Shown: positions 9,172 through 53,276, numbered from the stretch's first letter. The stretch is DNA of 64,000 bases from an uncultured bacterium (GCA_903872035.1 CAIQIZ010000022.1:5156-69155); one strand, 5' to 3'. Notes: generated from the letters alone by a model not told the origin. Translations and numbers: made by a program.

Positions 9172-9975
9172 ATGCTCGCGTCATCGACGAATATGAACTA
9201 CAGAAGTTTTATACCCGAAGTTAAGTTTGAGCCTGCTCCAATAAAGTTAGAGGCTGAATATTTGTATTATTTTTCTCGGATAGAACCGAGATTTGGTGCG
9301 GTAATTAATAGGGTCTATCCAGAGCTGCAGGGCATCATCGAAAAATCAGAGAATAAAAGTGAAGCTATCCTGAAATGTCGAGAATTTGCTGAAAAGGTAA
9401 TCGAAAACAACAAAACGAGCATCATAAAGGCAAAAGATGATTTTCAAAACGATTGGAAATTGGTCAGCACAGAATTTCTCGAGACTTTAAGTGAACATTT
9501 TGAAACCGAATGGCCTAGAGATAAAGGTGTTATAACTGGATACGTATCGATCGTGCCGATATTTCCGCGAATGTTGGATAAGTACTCCTTTTTTGTGGGA
9601 TATCCGGTGAAAATAGCGCGAGCAAGAGAGATAATCGCTCACGAAATCATTCATTTTCTTTGGTTCAAGAAATGGAAAGAGGTATTTCCAGAAATTTCCA
9701 CTGATCAATACAATAGTCCTCATTTAACATGGAGATTGAGTGAAGTAATGGATCAGATCATTCTTCAATGCCACCCCAGGCTCCAAAGTCTGATACATCC
9801 GACGATATGGGGTTACCCGTCATTTATGGATTTGAAGATAGGGAATATTGGTATGACTGAATATTTTGTAAATTTGTATACGAAATGCGTGCAGGAAGGT
9901 CAAAGTTTCGAGAATACATTGAGGGCTCTGTGGAAAGAGGCTCAAGAGAACAAGGAGGTATTGGAGAAGTTTTGA
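9172..9975 (+). CDS. Hypothetical protein with HExxH motif ('AHEIIHFLWF')
   Basis: Clean 267-aa ORF. Single HExxH in a hydrophobic helix. No other recognisable family. Confidence 0.4.
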   Translation: MLASSTNMNYRSFIPEVKFEPAPIKLEAEYLYYFSRIEPRFGAVINRVYPELQGIIEKSENKSEAILKCREFAEKVIENNKTSIIKAKDDFQNDWKLVSTEFLETLSEHFETEWPRDKGVITGYVSIVPIFPRMLDKYSFFVGYPVKIARAREIIAHEIIHFLWFKKWKEVFPEISTDQYNSPHLTWRLSEVMDQIILQCHPRLQSLIHPTIWGYPSFMDLKIGNIGMTEYFVNLYTKCVQEGQSFENTLRALWKEAQENKEVLEKF

Positions 9976-10238
9976 GTATAGAGGCCTTGTCATTGTTTGA
10001 ATCATATTATACTATTAGGACAGAACCGGATCGAATCATAGGCAATTTAGACTCGTGGTTCTACTGCGAGGTTGCGTATGGTCGCCGGTGACCTTTCAAA
10101 ACGAAAGGCTATGCATGAAAACTGCGAATTCCGCCAAACGGAAAGCAATGGTTGGCAATATCGGCCACACCAAAGTCGCCATGACTACCTGCACATGCGG
10201 GTGCTTTTGGAGCTGAGGTTGTCCAATAGTGTCTATCA

Positions 10239-10918
10239 ATGGCGGCTACTACGGCTTTGATAACGCCTTCAGACGTCAAAGTCGCCGCTGGACAGCAGTT
10301 CAACGTCGTCATAGCGGTCAATCCCAATGGCGGCAGTGATTTTGCCGAACAAGTGAAAGTTGATTTTCCGGCTGACCTTATCCAAGTGACCTCATTCAAT
10401 ATCGGAAGCAATTGGATGTCATTGACTCAACCGGGATATGATTCTATAGACAACGTAATGGAGTTTTGACCAAGACAGCCGGATATGCCGGAGGGATAAC
10501 TTCGCAGACGCCATTTGGAACCATTACCTTTACGGCTCTCAAATCCGGAAGCGGTGCTATCACCATCGTGAATGGATCTCAAGCTTTTCAGAAGAACGGT
10601 CAGACGCCTATCACTGGAACAGGAGCGTCCATCGTAGTGACGGCGGCCACAGTTGCACCGAAAACATCTCCGAGGACTACTCTGACAGCATCAGTCTCAA
10701 ATGATCTTACGCCTGTCACGACCATAAACGGTCAAATGGTCTCTACAACACCAGCCCAAGAGGCGGCCACGGCGGTCGCGGCTTCACAAGCGGCGGCAGT
10801 CAATGCTTCCGGAGCAAGCGCGTCAGGTCAGACATGGTTGTGGATATTGCTCGTCATCGTGGTTCTGGCACTCATCGGTTGGTGGATGTTCAGCCGAAAA
10901 CCGCGCTCGAAGTTTTAG
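10239..10918 (+). pseudogene. Cohesin-like/surface-anchored protein split by a +1 frameshift near 10466 (possible pseudogene or sequencing frameshift)
   Basis: ORF 10239..10469 ('...VKVDFPADLIQVTSFNIGSNW...') and ORF 10466..10918 ('...GITSQTPFGTITFTALKSGSGAITIVNGS...') together look like one beta-sandwich cohesin-like domain, then a Thr/Ala-rich linker and a C-terminal TM anchor 'WLWILLVIVVLALIGWW'. The two pieces are in different frames, and no signal-peptide-bearing start is present upstream. The region is GC-richer, with spurious antisense ORFs. Confidence 0.35.
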
Positions 10919-11002
10919 GACTTCAGGCTCCGCCTTTACAAAATAACGTGAATTTACAATACGTTCTTTACTGTTGGCGGAGTATACTGATAGAATGCAA
11001 AT

Positions 11003-11986
11003 ATGAATAAAATTTATCCAAAAAAATTAGAAAAAGGCGATGAAATCAGAGTAATAGCGCCATCCAGGTCGATGTCCATTATTTCTAAGGCAAACGGAGA
11101 GATTGCCGATAAGCGCCTTAGGGATTTGGGTTTTAATATTTCCTTCGGGAAAAATGTTGCAGAAAACGATAGCTTTCATTCCTCATCTATAAAATCAAGG
11201 ATAGCTGATTTACATGAGGCCTTTTTGGATAAGAAAATTAAGGCTGTTTTTGCTGTAATTGGTGGATTTAATTGTAATCAACTTTTACGATATATAGATT
11301 GGAATATTATTAAGAATAATCCCAAGATATTCATCGGTTACTCGGACACCACTGCATTGCAAAACGCTATTTTTGCCAAGACTGGTTTGGTAACATATTC
11401 TGGTCCAGCATGGTCCACTTTTGGTCAGAAGCTTCATTTTGATTACACTTTGGAATATTTTAAAAAATGCTTAATGTCCGACAATAGATTTTCCATTGAA
11501 CCATCTGAAAATTGGACTGATGATGAATGGTTTAATGATCAAGATAAAAGAGAACTAATAAAATATGATGGATGGCTAGTGATAAACAAAGGCAATGCGT
11601 CTGGTACACTGCTCGGTGCAAACCTTTGTACTTTTAACTTGCTTCAGGGAACGGAATATTTTCCGGATCTGAATAATTCGGTCTTATTTTTGGAAGATGA
11701 TGATGACGGTTCACGGAATGCGGGTTTTGATAGAGATTTGCAATCCCTAATTCATCAGCCTTCTTTTAAGGGTGTGAAAGGCATAGTGATCGGTAGATTT
11801 CAAAAGAAAAGTGAGATTACAAAGGAAAAACTAATTCAAATAATAAATACGAAAGCTGAACTTAAGGACATCCCTGTAATTTCAAATGTTGATTTCGGGC
11901 ATACTAGTCCCATAATAACTTTTCCAATAGGTGGTGAGGCAACAGTAGATACTAAAAATAATAGTATTATTATAACTAAGCATTAA
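11003..11986 (+). CDS. LD-carboxypeptidase (peptidase S66; LdcA/MccF-like)
   Basis: Nucleophile motif 'GYSDTTAL' and C-terminal 'VDFGHTSPIITFPIGGEA' His/Glu region characteristic of S66 muramoyl-tetrapeptide carboxypeptidases. Confidence 0.8.
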   Translation: MNKIYPKKLEKGDEIRVIAPSRSMSIISKANGEIADKRLRDLGFNISFGKNVAENDSFHSSSIKSRIADLHEAFLDKKIKAVFAVIGGFNCNQLLRYIDWNIIKNNPKIFIGYSDTTALQNAIFAKTGLVTYSGPAWSTFGQKLHFDYTLEYFKKCLMSDNRFSIEPSENWTDDEWFNDQDKRELIKYDGWLVINKGNASGTLLGANLCTFNLLQGTEYFPDLNNSVLFLEDDDDGSRNAGFDRDLQSLIHQPSFKGVKGIVIGRFQKKSEITKEKLIQIINTKAELKDIPVISNVDFGHTSPIITFPIGGEATVDTKNNSIIITKH

Positions 11987-12022
11987 TTATCGCACTTGTA
12001 AAAAACCTGCTATATTGTCCCC

Positions 12023-13159
12023 ATGTCCCTCTCCATCGGCATCGTCGGGCTCCCAAATGTCGGCAAATCGACTCTATTCAATGCGCTGACCCGGAAATCG
12101 GTCCCGGCCGAAAACTATCCTTTTTGCACCATCGATCCTTCGGTGGGTGTTGTGGCTGTGCCTGATGAGCGTTTGCAAAAGCTCTCGGACTTCTCTGTCT
12201 CAGTGAAAACAGTGCCTGCCGCAGTTGAATTCACTGACATCGCCGGTCTGGTCAAAGGCGCATCTGAAGGCGAAGGACTCGGAAATAAGTTCCTTTCACA
12301 TATCCGCGAAACGGACGCTATCGCCCAGGTAGTGCGCATCTTCGAAGACGAGAATGTTATTCACGTTAATGCAAAAATTGACCCATTGAAGGATATAGAA
12401 GTCATAAACCTAGAATTGGTTCTGGCGGATTTGCAGACAGCTACCAAGCGGATGCATTCATTGGTCAAAGAAGTCAAAGCTGGCAAGAAGGAGGCTATCA
12501 TTGAAGCTGGACTTCTGGACAAGATCATTCCGGCATTGGAAGCAGGGAAGCTGGCGTCGACAGTTGTGGCTGATGAATTCGAGGCGCCATTCCTCAAGCA
12601 ATTGTGCCTTATTACTTCAAAACCATTTCTTTATGTCTTGAACAAGAAGGCTGGCGCCAAGAATCTGGATGAATCTGTCCGAGGTGCGGCCTCGGAAATG
12701 GATGAAAGGTGGGTTAAGCTGATGAACTTCCTCGAAGGAGGTGGCACCTCCGAGGAGGTGCCACCTCCATATGTCATCGTCGACGCCGGTGTCGAGCAAG
12801 AATTGAAAGACCTAGATGAAGTGGATAAATTGGAGATGCGCGAAGGGCTCGGTGCTCACAACGATGGCACCGATGAGCTCATCAAGCGCGGCTACGACTT
12901 ACTCGGTCTCATCACCTATTTCACTACTGGAACCGATGAAACGCGTGCATGGACGATAAAGAAAGGCTGGACCGCTCCAGAAGCCGGGACTGCTATTCAT
13001 ACTGATTTCAAAGAAAAATTCGTTCGTGCCGAAGTCATCGAATGGGACAAACTCCTCTCCGTCGGCTCATACGCTGCCGCTCGCGAAAAAGGCTTGCTCC
13101 GCACCGAAGGGAAGGAGTATGTGGTCAAAGATGGGGATGTGATAGAGTTTAGGGTGTAG
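12023..13159 (+). CDS. ychF: Ribosome-binding ATPase YchF (Obg-family GTPase-like)
   Basis: P-loop 'GIVGLPNVGKSTLFNALT', 'DIAGLVKGASEGEGLGNKFL' G3/G4 region and C-terminal TGS domain 'RAWTIKKGWTAPEAGTAIHTDFKEKFVRAEV'. Carries an in-frame insertion encoded by two copies of a 15-nt palindrome (12737-12768). Confidence 0.9.
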   Translation: MSLSIGIVGLPNVGKSTLFNALTRKSVPAENYPFCTIDPSVGVVAVPDERLQKLSDFSVSVKTVPAAVEFTDIAGLVKGASEGEGLGNKFLSHIRETDAIAQVVRIFEDENVIHVNAKIDPLKDIEVINLELVLADLQTATKRMHSLVKEVKAGKKEAIIEAGLLDKIIPALEAGKLASTVVADEFEAPFLKQLCLITSKPFLYVLNKKAGAKNLDESVRGAASEMDERWVKLMNFLEGGGTSEEVPPPYVIVDAGVEQELKDLDEVDKLEMREGLGAHNDGTDELIKRGYDLLGLITYFTTGTDETRAWTIKKGWTAPEAGTAIHTDFKEKFVRAEVIEWDKLLSVGSYAAAREKGLLRTEGKEYVVKDGDVIEFRV

Positions 13160-49454: not shown

Positions 49455-50177
49455 ATGCTATTCACTGTCAAAACCCAATCATTCGAAGGCCCGCTCGACC
49501 TGCTGCTCGATCTTATCGAGAAGCGGAAGTTGTTCATCAATGACATCTCTCTAGTCAAAGTCACGGACGACTTTATTGCACATGTAAGACAGTTCGAAAA
49601 TCTGCCCATGGCTGAATCAGCTCATTTTATTTTGGTTGCATCGACTTTGCTTTTGATCAAATCCAAATCGCTGCTTCCGGACTTGAATCTGACAGAAGAG
49701 GAACAGACTGATATCCACGATCTGGAAACCAGATTGAAGATCTATCAGAAGATCAAGGACGCCAGCAAGCATGTGCAAAATCTTTTTGGAGCCGAGATGA
49801 TCTTCAGTCAGTCTCAATCGCGTCATTTCGAGCCAGTATTCGCTCCTGATCCGGAATTCACTCTTGAAAGAGCATTGCTGTCTCTGAAGGACCTTATCAG
49901 TAGATTACCGAAGGTCGAGACTTTGCCCAAGCACATCGTTCAGAAGGTGATCAGTCTAGAAGATATGATCGGAAATCTGACGACGAGGATCACGACTCAA
50001 CTCCGGATGAGCTTCAAGCAATTCGCTTCAGAGCAAAAAGGGGAGCGCGTGAATGTCATTGTCAGCTTTCTAGCCATGCTGGAGTTGGTCAAAGATGGAG
50101 TGTTGATGGTCTCGCAAGAATCACAATTTGGCGATATTCAGATGGAGACGAAGGAAGTTGGAGTGCCGAGGTACTAG
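49455..50177 (+). CDS. scpA: Segregation and condensation protein A
   Basis: 'FEGPLDLLLDLIEKRKLFINDISLVKVTDDF' is the ScpA N-terminus. Confidence 0.8.
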   Translation: MLFTVKTQSFEGPLDLLLDLIEKRKLFINDISLVKVTDDFIAHVRQFENLPMAESAHFILVASTLLLIKSKSLLPDLNLTEEEQTDIHDLETRLKIYQKIKDASKHVQNLFGAEMIFSQSQSRHFEPVFAPDPEFTLERALLSLKDLISRLPKVETLPKHIVQKVISLEDMIGNLTTRITTQLRMSFKQFASEQKGERVNVIVSFLAMLELVKDGVLMVSQESQFGDIQMETKEVGVPRY

Positions 50178-50230
50178 AAGTAGGGCCAGTCGGGCCGAAA
50201 TTGATGAGCGATAATTCTGGCTGATTTGGG

Positions 50231-50367
50231 TAGGTGGGAGGAGCGCATCCACTTTGAAAGCACTTTAGTCAACTAAAGTCAGATTGCAGAAAAACAACTG
50301 CAAATTTTGAACCTCCTACTTTAGTCAACTAAAGTGTGTGCAAAATGAACAACATACCCCCACCTAC
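50231..50367. repeat. MITE-like palindrome-rich element between scpA and scpB (about 11-bp terminal inverted repeats; internal 18-nt palindrome x2)
   Basis: Ends 'GTAGGTGGGAGG' ... 'CCCCCACCTAC'. Internal 'ACTTTAGTCAACTAAAGT' at 50263-50280 and 50320-50337. Central 'TTGCAGAAAAACAACTGCAA'. Confidence 0.35.
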
Positions 50368-50452
50368 GAACCACGGCCGATTTTAGAATCCACAGTGAAA
50401 TCGTCAAGATTACTGTTATAATTGAAACACCGCAACTCAATTGTGATCTTAA

Positions 50453-51013
50453 TTGGAAATTCTCATGAACCTATCCGCTCAAATCGAAGCCATCCTCTTT
50501 TGGAAAGCTGAACCAGTTTCATTTAAAAAACTGGCGTCATTGCTGAACGTTGATTTGACTGCGGTTGAAGCCGGCATCGTCGAACTTGAATCAGCATTGA
50601 AGGGAAGGGGACTTACCTTAATTCAAACAGACGAAGAAGTCATGCTTGGCACTTCCAAAGAGATGTCGCCAATAATCGAACAATTGACTAAGGATGAGCT
50701 GACTCGTGATTTGGGAAAGGCTGGACTAGAAACGCTTTCAATAATTCTCTACCAAGGACCTATTTCACGAGCCGATATCGATTACATCCGTGGCGTAAAT
50801 TCTCAATTCATTCTGCGGAATTTGCTGATCCGCGGATTGGTCGAAAGGATAGACAATCCAAAGGATGCACGAAGCTTCTTATACAAGACAACCTTAGATC
50901 TCCTATCACATCTAGGAATTTCAAAAGTCACCGATCTGCCTGAATATGAGAATGTGAGGAAAGATATCGAGAGTTTCAAAACGGCCGCCCAAATTCGAAA
51001 TTCGAATTTATAA
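50453..51013 (+). CDS. scpB: Segregation and condensation protein B
   Basis: Tandem winged-helix 'LSAQIEAILFWKAEPVSFKKLASLLNVD...GLTLIQ' and 'ETLSIILYQGPISRADIDYIRGVNSQFILRNLLIRGLV'. Confidence 0.8.
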   Translation: MEILMNLSAQIEAILFWKAEPVSFKKLASLLNVDLTAVEAGIVELESALKGRGLTLIQTDEEVMLGTSKEMSPIIEQLTKDELTRDLGKAGLETLSIILYQGPISRADIDYIRGVNSQFILRNLLIRGLVERIDNPKDARSFLYKTTLDLLSHLGISKVTDLPEYENVRKDIESFKTAAQIRNSNL

Positions 51014-51016
51014 CGA

Positions 51017-52120
51017 ATGCCGAATACCAGCCAAAAGATCGATCGTTTTTTTCTCATCACAGTGGGAATTTTGACTATATTCGGATTTGTAATATTCCTT
51101 TCGGCATCACTAGGACTTCTAGCTCAAAACGGGACTAGCTTTGCCACAGTGGCTGAAAAACAAACTATTAGCTTGTCGATCGGCGTAATCCTATTCTTTG
51201 TCTTCTCTAAAATCCAATATTCCTGGCCCCGTAAAGGCGCTCTATTCATCTTGGTCGGAGCTGTCATTATCAATCTCCTCTTATTCGTCCCGAGCCTGTC
51301 TCTCCACTTCAACGGGGCATCGCGGTGGCTAAAGCTCGGCTCCATGTCTTTCCAGCCTTCTGAACTACTGAAGATCGCACTGATAATTTATCTGGCAGCG
51401 TGGGCATATCTTACCAAGGATCGTATTGTGGAAATGAAACACGGCCTTATCCCTTTCGTGGCCATTATGTCGATCGTAAGTCTGTTACTCCTAGCGCAAC
51501 GCGACACAGATACCCTAGTCATCATTGCTGGCACCGGACTCATCATGTTCATAGTCGCCGGCATGCCTCTCCGGCACGTCTTGATCGTCGGTCTGCTCAT
51601 GGGAGTTTTGGTCGGCGGGGTAATTTTGGTTCGTCCATATGCTCTGGAACGCGTAAAGACCTATTTCAACAGACAGTCTGACTTGCAAGGCTCCGGTTAC
51701 CAGATCAACCAATCACTGATAGCCATAGGATCAGGTCAATTTTTCGGTCGTGGCTTTGGACAGAGCGTCCAAAAATTCGGTTACCTGCCCCAGCCAACAG
51801 ATGACTCCATATTTGCTGTGGCTGCTGAGGAATTCGGTTTTGTTGGGAGTATGGGTTTGCTCGTTCTTTACGTCTTGCTAGCAGCGAGCATTTTTCGCAT
51901 TGGCAATAGATCTGCTGACGTATTTGGCGGTCTTATCTGTATCGGCATCGCCATACTGATCATTATCGAATCATTCATGAATATGGGAGCCATGCTTGGT
52001 CTCATACCGCTATCTGGGATTCCTTTGTTATTCGTCAGTCACGGAGGTACGGCTCTCATCATCACGCTAATAACCATGGGAATAGTCGCCAATGTTTCCA
52101 AGTATTCACGTCAGGCCTGA
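51017..52120 (+). CDS. ftsW: SEDS-family peptidoglycan glycosyltransferase (FtsW/RodA)
   Basis: 10-TM protein with 'QPSELLKIALIIYLAAW' and 'GGTALIITLITMGI'. Confidence 0.85.
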   Translation: MPNTSQKIDRFFLITVGILTIFGFVIFLSASLGLLAQNGTSFATVAEKQTISLSIGVILFFVFSKIQYSWPRKGALFILVGAVIINLLLFVPSLSLHFNGASRWLKLGSMSFQPSELLKIALIIYLAAWAYLTKDRIVEMKHGLIPFVAIMSIVSLLLLAQRDTDTLVIIAGTGLIMFIVAGMPLRHVLIVGLLMGVLVGGVILVRPYALERVKTYFNRQSDLQGSGYQINQSLIAIGSGQFFGRGFGQSVQKFGYLPQPTDDSIFAVAAEEFGFVGSMGLLVLYVLLAASIFRIGNRSADVFGGLICIGIAILIIIESFMNMGAMLGLIPLSGIPLLFVSHGGTALIITLITMGIVANVSKYSRQA

Positions 52121-52142: not shown

Positions 52143-53276
52143 ATGAAGATCCTATTCACCGGCGGTGGCACAGGCGGGCATTTCTATCCCATAATCGCTG
52201 TCGCTGAAGCGGTCAGGGAACGTGCGAAGGAACGCAGGATACTTGAGCCATCGCTGTTCTACATGGCCACCTCAAAATACAATCCTCGCTCACTATTCGA
52301 TAATGGAATTGAATTTGTGAACATTCCAGCTGGCAAGATTCGTCGATATTTCTCATTGTTGAATGTCACTGATCTCTTTAAAACCTTCATCGGCATCATC
52401 ATTGCTATTTTCAGAATGTTCTCCATATATCCCGACGTCGTCTTTGGAAAAGGCGGTTATGCCAGTTTCCCAGCCCTAGTAGCTGCCAGATTGCTGCGAA
52501 TCCCTGTAGTCATCCATGAATCTGATAGCCGACCGGGAAAGGTCAATGCTTGGGCCGGAAAGTTTGCCCAAAAGATAGCCCTGTCATATCCCCAAGCCGC
52601 CGAATTCTTTCCCAAACATAAGGACAGGATAGCTCTCACCGGTAATCCCATTCGACGAGAAATCGTTCAGCCACTATCCAATGGGGCTCATGAATACATG
52701 CTCCTCGAACTAGGAACGCCGACCATTTTAGTGCTCGGAGGTTCACAAGGTGCCCAAGCTATCAATGATGTGATGATCGAGGCCTTGCCGGAACTTTTGA
52801 ATAAGTATCAAATTATCCACCAAACCGGTAAGAATAATCTTGAAGGAATGAAGCAGATGTCGACACTTGTTCTCAAAGGCCACGAATACGCCTACCGGTA
52901 CCATCCATTGGATTACCTAAACGACCTTTCGCTCCGAATGTCCGCCGGCGTGGCTGACATAGTAGTTTCTCGCGCTGGGTCTACGATCTTCGAGATCGCG
53001 GCTTGGGGTATTCCATCGATCATCATACCTTTGCCGCATTCCGTTTCGCACGATCAGACCGACAATGCATTTGCCTACGCCCGGAGCGGGGCGGCCTCGG
53101 TCATCGAGGAGAACAACCTTAGCTCTCATATCCTCGTAGAAGAGATAGATCGGATAGTTGGGTCGGTCTCTTTGACTGCAACTATGAAGGAACATGCCAA
53201 AGCTTTTGCGCGTCTAGACAGTGCCCGAGTCATCGCCGATGGCATCCTAGACATTGCATTACAACATGAAAAGTGA
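52143..53276 (+). CDS. murG: UDP-N-acetylglucosamine--N-acetylmuramyl-(pentapeptide)-pyrophosphoryl-undecaprenol N-acetylglucosamine transferase
   Basis: 'ILFTGGGTGGHFYPIIAVAE' and C-terminal 'GGSQGAQAIN...HQTG'. Confidence 0.9.
   Translation: MKILFTGGGTGGHFYPIIAVAEAVRERAKERRILEPSLFYMATSKYNPRSLFDNGIEFVNIPAGKIRRYFSLLNVTDLFKTFIGIIIAIFRMFSIYPDVVFGKGGYASFPALVAARLLRIPVVIHESDSRPGKVNAWAGKFAQKIALSYPQAAEFFPKHKDRIALTGNPIRREIVQPLSNGAHEYMLLELGTPTILVLGGSQGAQAINDVMIEALPELLNKYQIIHQTGKNNLEGMKQMSTLVLKGHEYAYRYHPLDYLNDLSLRMSAGVADIVVSRAGSTIFEIAAWGIPSIIIPLPHSVSHDQTDNAFAYARSGAASVIEENNLSSHILVEEIDRIVGSVSLTATMKEHAKAFARLDSARVIADGILDIALQHEK

Follow-up and report, generated by a model that had tools for sequence, protein, structure and literature searches.

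A probable paired YerC/HisR-type operator cassette between scpA and scpB, with further copies in a Taylorbacteria-like genome

The window, by which we mean the whole 64-kb stretch of DNA analysed here, is a contig of a Taylorbacteria-like Patescibacterium, a very small bacterium of the candidate phyla radiation. Its ORFs include the gene order trpS-scpA-scpB-ftsW-murG, all on the plus strand (Table 1), with scpA and scpB separated by a non-coding gap of 287 nt (50178-50464), provided that the ATG at 50465 is the scpB start. JGI contig Ga0073936_10000349 encodes an identical ScpA, as do many assemblies of that boreal-lake series, the names attached to relatives of ScpB are Taylorbacteria, Paceibacterota or Parcubacteria, and the scpA-scpB spacer is 100% identical in four further contigs of the same species. 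Neither a tRNA, a tmRNA nor a gathering-level Rfam family was found in the whole 64-kb window (1-64000).

A preliminary description of this DNA had held that scpA and scpB normally lie close together, and this is borne out by 74 species-level GTDB relatives, in which the two genes stand a median of 55 nt apart (2-1126 nt), and at most 75 nt apart in 45. Gaps of at least 300 nt (300-1126 nt) occur in 15 of the 74 and are filled by one or two small unrelated ORFs. Given this median and these ORF-bearing long gaps, the junction is usually tight yet a permissive insertion site, and it is an insertion hot spot in the clade of relatives L009-L088. The inserted small ORFs each come with promoter-like and terminator-like sequences of their own.

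Table 1. Features of the scpA-scpB junction in the window, followed by reference loci in other contigs
Feature	Position	Strand	Sequence or size	Remark
scpA	49455..50177	+	240 aa	ORF; Pfam PF02616 SMC_ScpA recorded for an identical protein
Quasi-palindromic cassette	50230..50367		138 bp	layout 32 (arm)-18 (operator 1)-38 (spacer)-18 (operator 2)-32 (arm)
Left arm	50230..50261			opens with the G-run GTAGGTGGGAGG
Terminal inverted repeat, left	50230-50241		GTAGGTGGGAGG	
Operator 1	50261..50280		CACTTTAGTCAACTAAAGTC, 20 bp	HisR/YerC-type consensus at 13/14 specified positions
18-nt palindrome, two exact copies	50262-50279 and 50318-50335		ACTTTAGTCAACTAAAGT	
Spacer	50280..50317		38 nt	rich in A/T tracts; exactly 38 nt in all four cassettes
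Small palindrome	50284-50303		TTGCAG-N8-CTGCAA	inside the 38-nt spacer
-35-like hexamer	50307..50312	+	TTGAAC	4 nt (CTCC) before operator 2; placed as TTGAC(T/G) in L211-L214
CCTCC	50312-50316		CCTCC	inside the 38-nt spacer
Operator 2	50317..50336		TACTTTAGTCAACTAAAGTG, 20 bp	HisR/YerC-type consensus at 13/14 specified positions
-10-like hexamer	50330..50335	+	TAAAGT	right half of operator 2; 17-bp spacing from TTGAAC
Right arm	50336..50367			closes with the C-run ATACCCCCACCTAC
Mini-ORF	50345..50386	+	MNNIPPPTNHGRF*, 13 codons	PPP run; begins 3 nt past the predicted transcription start
Terminal inverted repeat, right	50357-50367		CCCCCACCTAC	
Promoter-like sequence	50380..50407	-	TTGACG-16-TAAAAT	10/12 matches; points into the cassette
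Extended -10, proximal scpB promoter	50414..50422	+	TGTTATAAT	from promoter scan; kept in relatives
scpB	50465..51013	+	182 aa	ATG at 50465
ftsW	51017-52120	+		downstream of scpB
murG	52143-53276	+		downstream of ftsW
Long-gap scpA-scpB junctions (set L009-L088)	L010 2547-3000; L012 2317-3000; L039 1860-2985; L085 1916-3000			examples
Extended palindromes	L131 2402-2439; L133 ~785-825; L194 ~1158-1198; L110 2632-2669; L117 14064-14101; L104 1867-1900			

Within the gap lies a quasi-palindromic cassette in which two arms enclose two operators and a spacer. The terminal inverted repeats, the two 18-nt palindromes, the central palindrome and the CCTCC that had been noted earlier were all found again (Table 1). 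Over their 50 nt, the stretches 50230-50279 and 50318-50367 show 72% complementarity, 20 of 32 positions in the left and right arms form Watson-Crick pairs (8 expected), and the operators stand 56 bp apart from centre to centre. With up to three mismatches allowed, shuffling gave an expectation of 0.09 palindrome matches, and none of 100 shuffles reached the observed count.

YerC, also called HisR, is a histidine-dependent repressor of the TrpR family, and the published consensus of its operators is cacTTTAnnnnnnTAAAgtg (PMC9413887); the study in question covered Firmicutes and a few other phyla, including Actinobacteria and Synergistetes, considered histidine genes only, and quotes the motif of TrpR itself as TGTAcTnGTnnACnAgTACA. 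In the 64 kb, sites that fit the consensus at 13 of 14 specified positions are the two operators alone, where about 0.01 would be expected. These matches, the only such sites in 64 kb, settle the motif class of both palindromes, as judged by sequence, as a HisR/YerC-type (TrpR-family) operator under a consensus drawn from Firmicutes, Actinobacteria and Synergistetes, Patescibacteria not being among the groups of PMC9413887. Of the possibilities raised in the preliminary description, the consensus match and the yerC-like neighbours of the palindrome elsewhere support the clustered operator, with ACTTTAGT half-sites for a dimeric regulator. On the same two grounds, MraZ boxes (AAAGTG/GTGGG), parS or KorB-like centromere sites, DnaA boxes and DNA uptake sequences were dropped as candidates.

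Across 487 kb from 80 relatives, only two 13/14 sites were found, both of them in the scpA-scpB spacer (L036, L039), and the closest relative, L009, carries in its own scpA-scpB spacer ACTACACTCAACTGTAGT, which is the same palindrome with two compensated positions. The recurrence of the operator in the spacers of these three relatives fits a junction-resident operator better than random insertion. The motif ACATACCCCC of the right arm recurs beside single operators in three Taylorbacteria-like contigs (L139, L091, L179). Viral contigs held four single-palindrome matches, a number consistent with chance, and no instance of the two-operator pattern, and a literature search for the sequence strings returned nothing relevant.

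When metagenome contigs were scanned for the exact pattern, at least 118 stretches with the palindrome came back, and in about 15 independent loci it directly adjoins, mostly just upstream, an ORF of 100-150 aa that belongs to Pfam PF01371 (Trp_repressor) and NCBIfam TIGR02531 (YerC/YecD family TrpR-related protein). In three further loci, the palindrome sits between a TTGACA-17-TATAAT promoter and a gene judged by eye to be hisZ-like. Patescibacteria abound in the YerC/YecD family: 5923 clusters matched its profile at E <= 1e-10, with names that include Kaiser-, Uhr-, Giovannoni- and Spechtbacteria and Paceibacterota. No yerC-like gene was found in the 64-kb window or in about 60 kb of other sequence from the same population, so that the cognate regulator of the cassettes is one that we infer.

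The operator also marks a recurrent promoter design. Four Parcubacteria yerC loci (L211-L214) share the order TTGAC(T/G), 4 nt, 20-bp operator, 5 nt, ATG, a layout that points to a -35 box 17 bp from a -10 box formed by the operator's right half, TAAAGT, and to a leaderless mRNA. These loci, at about 9960-12200, have in synteny yerC, an unknown gene of 237-373 aa and, on the opposite strand, a gene for an AstE_AspA-like deacylase, at whose start lies a second HisR-type operator; both promoters appear leaderless with TAAAGT as the -10 box. In L114 (5490-5840), a unit of about 143 bp is tandemly duplicated upstream of a yerC gene, each unit having one operator upstream, a TTGACA -35 box, and a further operator whose sequence overlaps a TACACT -10 box, with operator centres about 60 bp apart, near the 56 bp of the cassette.

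Further copies of the element, for which the preliminary description had proposed searching the rest of the genome, were recovered by a metagenome scan in three same-architecture elements at unrelated loci, none of them near scpAB (L121, L124 and L174, the last equal to L102 plus L150). All four cassettes follow the layout of 32-18-38-18-32 nt without indels. Outside the operators they are 52% identical, as against 33% (maximum 36%) in shuffled and realigned controls. Pairing between the arms involves 13-20 of 32 positions over the four cassettes (8 expected), mainly in the G-run and C-run, whose pairing is kept in all four, and a GC-rich CGCCGGCGCGC stands beside operator 1 in three copies and is absent from that of the window. 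A profile built from the four copies gives them 120-134 bits when read one way as against 54-63 bits on the reverse strand, and because the score depends on orientation the family has polarity; its orientation agrees with the downstream gene in three copies, and the window copy is inverted.

The four cassettes occupy dissimilar neighbourhoods. Besides the one between scpA and scpB, the L121 cassette lies 70 nt upstream of rnpB, the RNase P RNA gene, on the nrdJ/rnpB contig, one lies about 160 nt upstream of an operon with a 950-aa DUF87/DUF8128 ATPase, and one lies between the divergent rpsA and Lactamase_B hydrolase-gyrA operon. The RNase P RNA (L121 7191-7658, plus strand; Rfam RF00010, 81 bits, E = 7e-25) escaped the standard Rfam scan because its 81 bits fall below the gathering score of 100; it was first recognised by eye through the motif GAGGAAAGTCCG.

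By their sequence signature and co-occurrence, the four cassettes appear to belong to one genome, that of the window. The tetranucleotide correlation with the window is 0.91-0.96 for the three other cassette contigs, as against 0.82-0.95 for 12-kb pieces of the window compared with its remainder and 0.79-0.86 for Taylorbacteria-like relatives; next highest in similarity are two contigs with a PF01371/TIGR02531 gene beside an operator (L164, L138). Sample 3300009175, from which the window comes, also contains the nrdJ/rnpB and DUF87 contigs. The DUF87 contig occurs in ENA ERZ1426631 together with the scpA contig and in ERZ1426629 together with the nrdJ contig, both entries also having NCBI copies and appearing to be bins, and the gyrA and scpA contigs are common to assembly ERZ27313079. 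In the approximately 127 kb of sequence attributed to this population, which includes three contigs chosen for carrying a cassette copy, every one of the eight HisR-type operators belongs to a cassette and none is single. In the same population, a few kb downstream of gyrA, six small T4SS_pilin genes follow one another (L215 15036-17962).

At operator 2 of the window, the promoter-like geometry (TTGAAC, 17 bp, TAAAGT) is that of the yerC promoters of L211-L214, and from it we infer a transcription start predicted near 50342 on the plus strand, directed towards scpB. The site is weak, with 4/6 and 4/6 consensus matches that place it under the cut-off of the promoter scan. The TTTTGAACCTCC around its -35-like hexamer is also present in the L121 cassette, and among the eight operator sides of the four cassettes, 4 have an outward-facing -35 (at least 4/6 matches, 16-18 bp), where about 0.9 would be expected; on the gene-facing side of the L124 cassette, the -35 reaches 3/6 only. 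A -35 box in the operator centre itself, TTGACT, was rejected as a candidate, the cassettes having no -10 at the right distance from it.

Independently of the cassette, a TGnTATAAT element precedes the scpB ATG by 7-45 nt in nearly all relatives (L009-L088), and since relatives keep this extended -10, scpB has its own promoter even where the gap to scpA is less than 20 nt. Several scpB mRNAs of these relatives look leaderless. In the window, the operators lie 80-150 bp upstream of this conserved proximal promoter and do not overlap it. The 13-codon mini-ORF downstream of the predicted start is probably without function, and a leader peptide was rejected, neither this ORF nor an SD-like AGGAGG on the minus strand being kept in the other three cassettes.

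Taken together, these observations make it probable that the element is a paired YerC/HisR-type operator cassette within a 138-bp near-palindrome, that is, cis-regulatory DNA present in at least four copies in a Taylorbacteria-like genome. Because three cassettes of the same layout lie at other loci with the same genome signature, the most fitting description of the spacer element is a two-operator regulatory cassette in dispersed copies. A repressor dimer with a small-molecule co-repressor would occupy each operator; the co-repressor of the characterised HisR is histidine (PMC9413887), and for the purified HisR of R. gnavus ligand-dependent binding was assayed by EMSA or fluorescence polarisation. 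A sigma-70-type promoter with its -35 (TTGAAC) in the 38-bp spacer would have its own spacer and -10 (TAAAGT) overlapped by operator 2; it would fire towards scpB-ftsW-murG and be shut by repressor occupancy. Operator 1 would serve as an auxiliary site, and the pair could also block read-through from trpS-scpA, while the second, extended -10 promoter of scpB would stay unregulated about 80 bp further downstream. At the scpA/scpB junction, the cassette most likely confers, by this prediction, regulated promoter or insulator activity, and an uncoupling of scpB expression, which the preliminary description had proposed, is plausible.

The cassettes together could form the core of a growth-gene regulon. 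Their neighbours are scpA/scpB-ftsW-murG, rnpB, the DUF87 ATPase, rpsA and hydrolase-gyrA, with no histidine genes among them, and the cassettes are therefore not a HisR regulon as described. A bolder version, which we put forward tentatively and regard as possible but on balance doubtful, is that of a portable two-operator promoter cassette copied to several loci, which would place RNase P RNA, gyrase, ribosomal protein S1 and scpB-ftsW-murG under one amino-acid-sensing repressor of the TrpR family; if true, such a "regulon-building" module would in effect let an auxotrophic episymbiont switch its growth globally. The two-operator model does not account for the conserved 32-nt arms, the G-run and C-run ends, the GC-rich CGCCGGCGCGC of three copies, the exact length or the inverted orientation of the window copy.

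A rival reading is a non-autonomous mobile element (MITE-, REPIN- or Correia-like) that has spread through the genome, whose palindromes would be recognition sites or passengers that wire genes to a host regulator. The element is a short non-coding near-palindrome with terminal inverted repeats of 9-11 bp, it is found in at least four copies at unrelated intergenic sites of what is apparently one genome, and the ends of the copies are alike, as in GTAGGTGGGGG and GCAGGTGGGG; the scpA-scpB site is empty in most relatives, in keeping with the median gap given above. As expected of a MITE, it has the termini GTAGGTGGG...CCCACCTAC, measures 138 bp and lacks a credible ORF, and as in a REPIN two units lie in a hairpin, with a GTAG end in the window copy only. 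Against this reading, no target-site duplication was found at any of the four copies, the window copy being flanked by GATTTGG and GAACCAC and the other three by no direct repeat, and in the approximately 127 kb attributed to the population no two copies were near-identical and none had a transposase or RAYT gene linked to it. Furthermore, at 52% identity outside the operators, no base has been gained or lost in length, and this invariance argues for constraint rather than the decay of a selfish repeat, while the single operators in the same spacer of L036, L039 and L009 fit the local evolution of a regulatory site. A comparison with the empty site was precluded by the relatives' intergenic sequences, which are too diverged to align apart from the scpB -10 box. 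The MITE-like character suggested in the preliminary description thus finds backing in the dispersed copies and the terminal repeats and none in target-site duplication, a linked transposase or near-identical copies, and we consider a mobile element as the whole explanation unlikely. The two readings are compatible: spread of the cassette as one unit may have been followed by its retention for wiring genes to a regulator.

Less probable again is that the cassette acts as RNA, whether as an RNase III-cut or mRNA-stabilising hairpin in read-through from trpS-scpA that uncouples scpB, or as a hairpin RNA of about 140 nt from the minus strand. The appeal of this idea lies in the fold, which, when computed as the preliminary description had advised, proved far more stable than shuffled sequence on both strands (-55.8 kcal/mol, z = -6.4, on the plus strand; -65.3 kcal/mol, z = -7.4, on the minus strand), with pairing between the operators forming a helix of 18-20 bp. 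The minus strand of the window copy is ahead in wobble pairs by 5 to 1, which is the source of its advantage in folding energy, and on it a promoter-like site directly precedes the cassette. Over the four copies, 76.5% of cells are paired, as against 33-46% in slid controls. Yet with columns shuffled the pairing is still 73.9 +/- 1.6 (36 of 500 shuffles as high), and the covariation of 0.187 does not exceed the 0.169 +/- 0.026 of its column-shuffle control (137 of 500 shuffles as high), a test that has little power with four sequences, so that the cassette may still, with low probability, serve as an RNase III target in read-through transcripts. The strand bias vanishes over the four copies (16 versus 11 wobble pairs), C-A mismatches fall at the operator centres in three copies on the strand favoured by the family alignment, and the minus-strand promoter-like site is absent from the other three cassettes, such sites occurring at chance level (2 found, 0.9 expected). 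Rfam 15 gave no gathering-level match, a permissive scan only chance-level matches to miRNA-like hairpins (E >= 0.06), and no terminator-like site was found on either strand of 49900-50700. The multi-hairpin small RNA entertained in the preliminary description accordingly found no backing in Rfam, terminators, covariation or a reproducible strand bias. Selection for a strand-specific RNA was rejected on the G-U bias being confined to the window copy and on the covariation result, and 6S RNA, SRP RNA and Y RNA were set aside for want of a central bubble, conserved SRP motifs and an Rfam signal.

Hardly credible, finally, is an idiosyncratic spacer with palindromes that arose by chance or by replication template-switching and serve no function: perfect central palindromes can grow by template switching, and many HisR-type sites in metagenomes have extra flanking complementarity of variable sequence, but the two 13/14 matches far exceed expectation, the architecture recurs in four copies and the operators recur in the same spacer of other lineages. 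An idiosyncratic spacer was the outcome against which the preliminary description had staked its case, and further copies and recurring operators were found instead.

The paired operator cassette can be placed beside several known systems. With the HisR (YerC) operators (PMC9413887) it shares the 20-bp palindrome fitting cacTTTAnnnnnnTAAAgtg and, in metagenomes, the PF01371/TIGR02531 regulator family, the position beside or upstream of the regulator's own gene, as in autoregulation, and, at some loci, upstream of a hisZ-like gene. It differs from them in its Taylorbacteria-like Patescibacterium host, in neighbour genes other than his genes and in the pairing of its sites inside a fixed 138-bp near-palindrome. 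The operator class is thus known, and what is new, as predicted here, is the host phylum, the candidate target genes and the fixed two-operator architecture.

In Escherichia coli, the TrpR operators at trp, aroH and trpR overlap the -10 of the promoters that they control. The cassette resembles this system in the protein fold of its inferred regulator, the 20-bp palindromic design, the ...TAGTTAACTA... type of centre and the predicted -10 overlap, whereas its outer half-site is CACTTTA in place of GTACT, and nothing here points to tryptophan as the ligand, even with trpS two genes upstream. The Correia elements of Neisseria, the enterobacterial ERIC and BIME sequences and the REPINs are palindromic repeats scattered between genes, with host-factor sites or promoters in them. 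Like them, the cassette is an imperfect intergenic palindrome of 100-150 bp with several copies per genome, would form a hairpin when transcribed, and combines protein-binding sites, predicted in its case, with promoter-like hexamers. Unlike them, it lacks a TA or other target-site duplication and a linked RAYT or transposase, its copies are highly diverged but constant in length and so far low in number, and the bound factor would be a TrpR-family repressor, not IHF or gyrase. NrdR boxes are paired palindromes with a spacing of about 31 bp that are not embedded in a long inverted repeat; they too consist of two identical palindromes at a fixed distance upstream of genes at several loci per genome, and differ from the cassette in regulator family, in motif and in spacing (56 bp here).

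To our knowledge, Patescibacteria have few transcription factors and their gene regulation is almost unstudied, and our literature search found no paper linking YerC/TrpR-family proteins to them. The 104-aa YerC/YecD protein, with thousands of clusters, is among their most widespread regulators, and in a Taylorbacteria-like genome the HisR-type operator is now linked to loci of cell division and chromosome segregation and to those of rnpB, gyrA and rpsA. The fixed 138-bp cassette and the leaderless yerC promoter design offer a testable entry into the growth control of Patescibacteria, and possibly a case of regulon growth through the copying of a ready-made operator/promoter module.

Other HisR-type sites in the metagenomes show further variation on the palindrome. 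At least 4 extra complementary bp flank 22 of 99 unique sites, mostly between convergent genes, and some sites are perfect palindromes of 30-42 bp with variable outer sequence, for example between trigger factor and rsmE; these extended palindromes (Table 1) suggest a second role as hairpins, in the manner of operator-built terminators, or growth by template switching. The sequence CGATTCGCCACTTTAGTCAACTAAAGTTTTAACTCATTTGC represents one locus in human-gut-type metagenomes, with many near-identical contigs (about 25 loci, including L093, L097, L100 and L107, and further L112, L113, L123 and L128). A second type of palindrome, ACTACAG(C/T)TAACTGTAGT, stands beside a canonical HisR-type site in L129 (about 150-215) and alone in the scpA-scpB spacer of L009 (2884-2906), and it may either serve a paralogous regulator of the TrpR family or represent an operator that has diverged.
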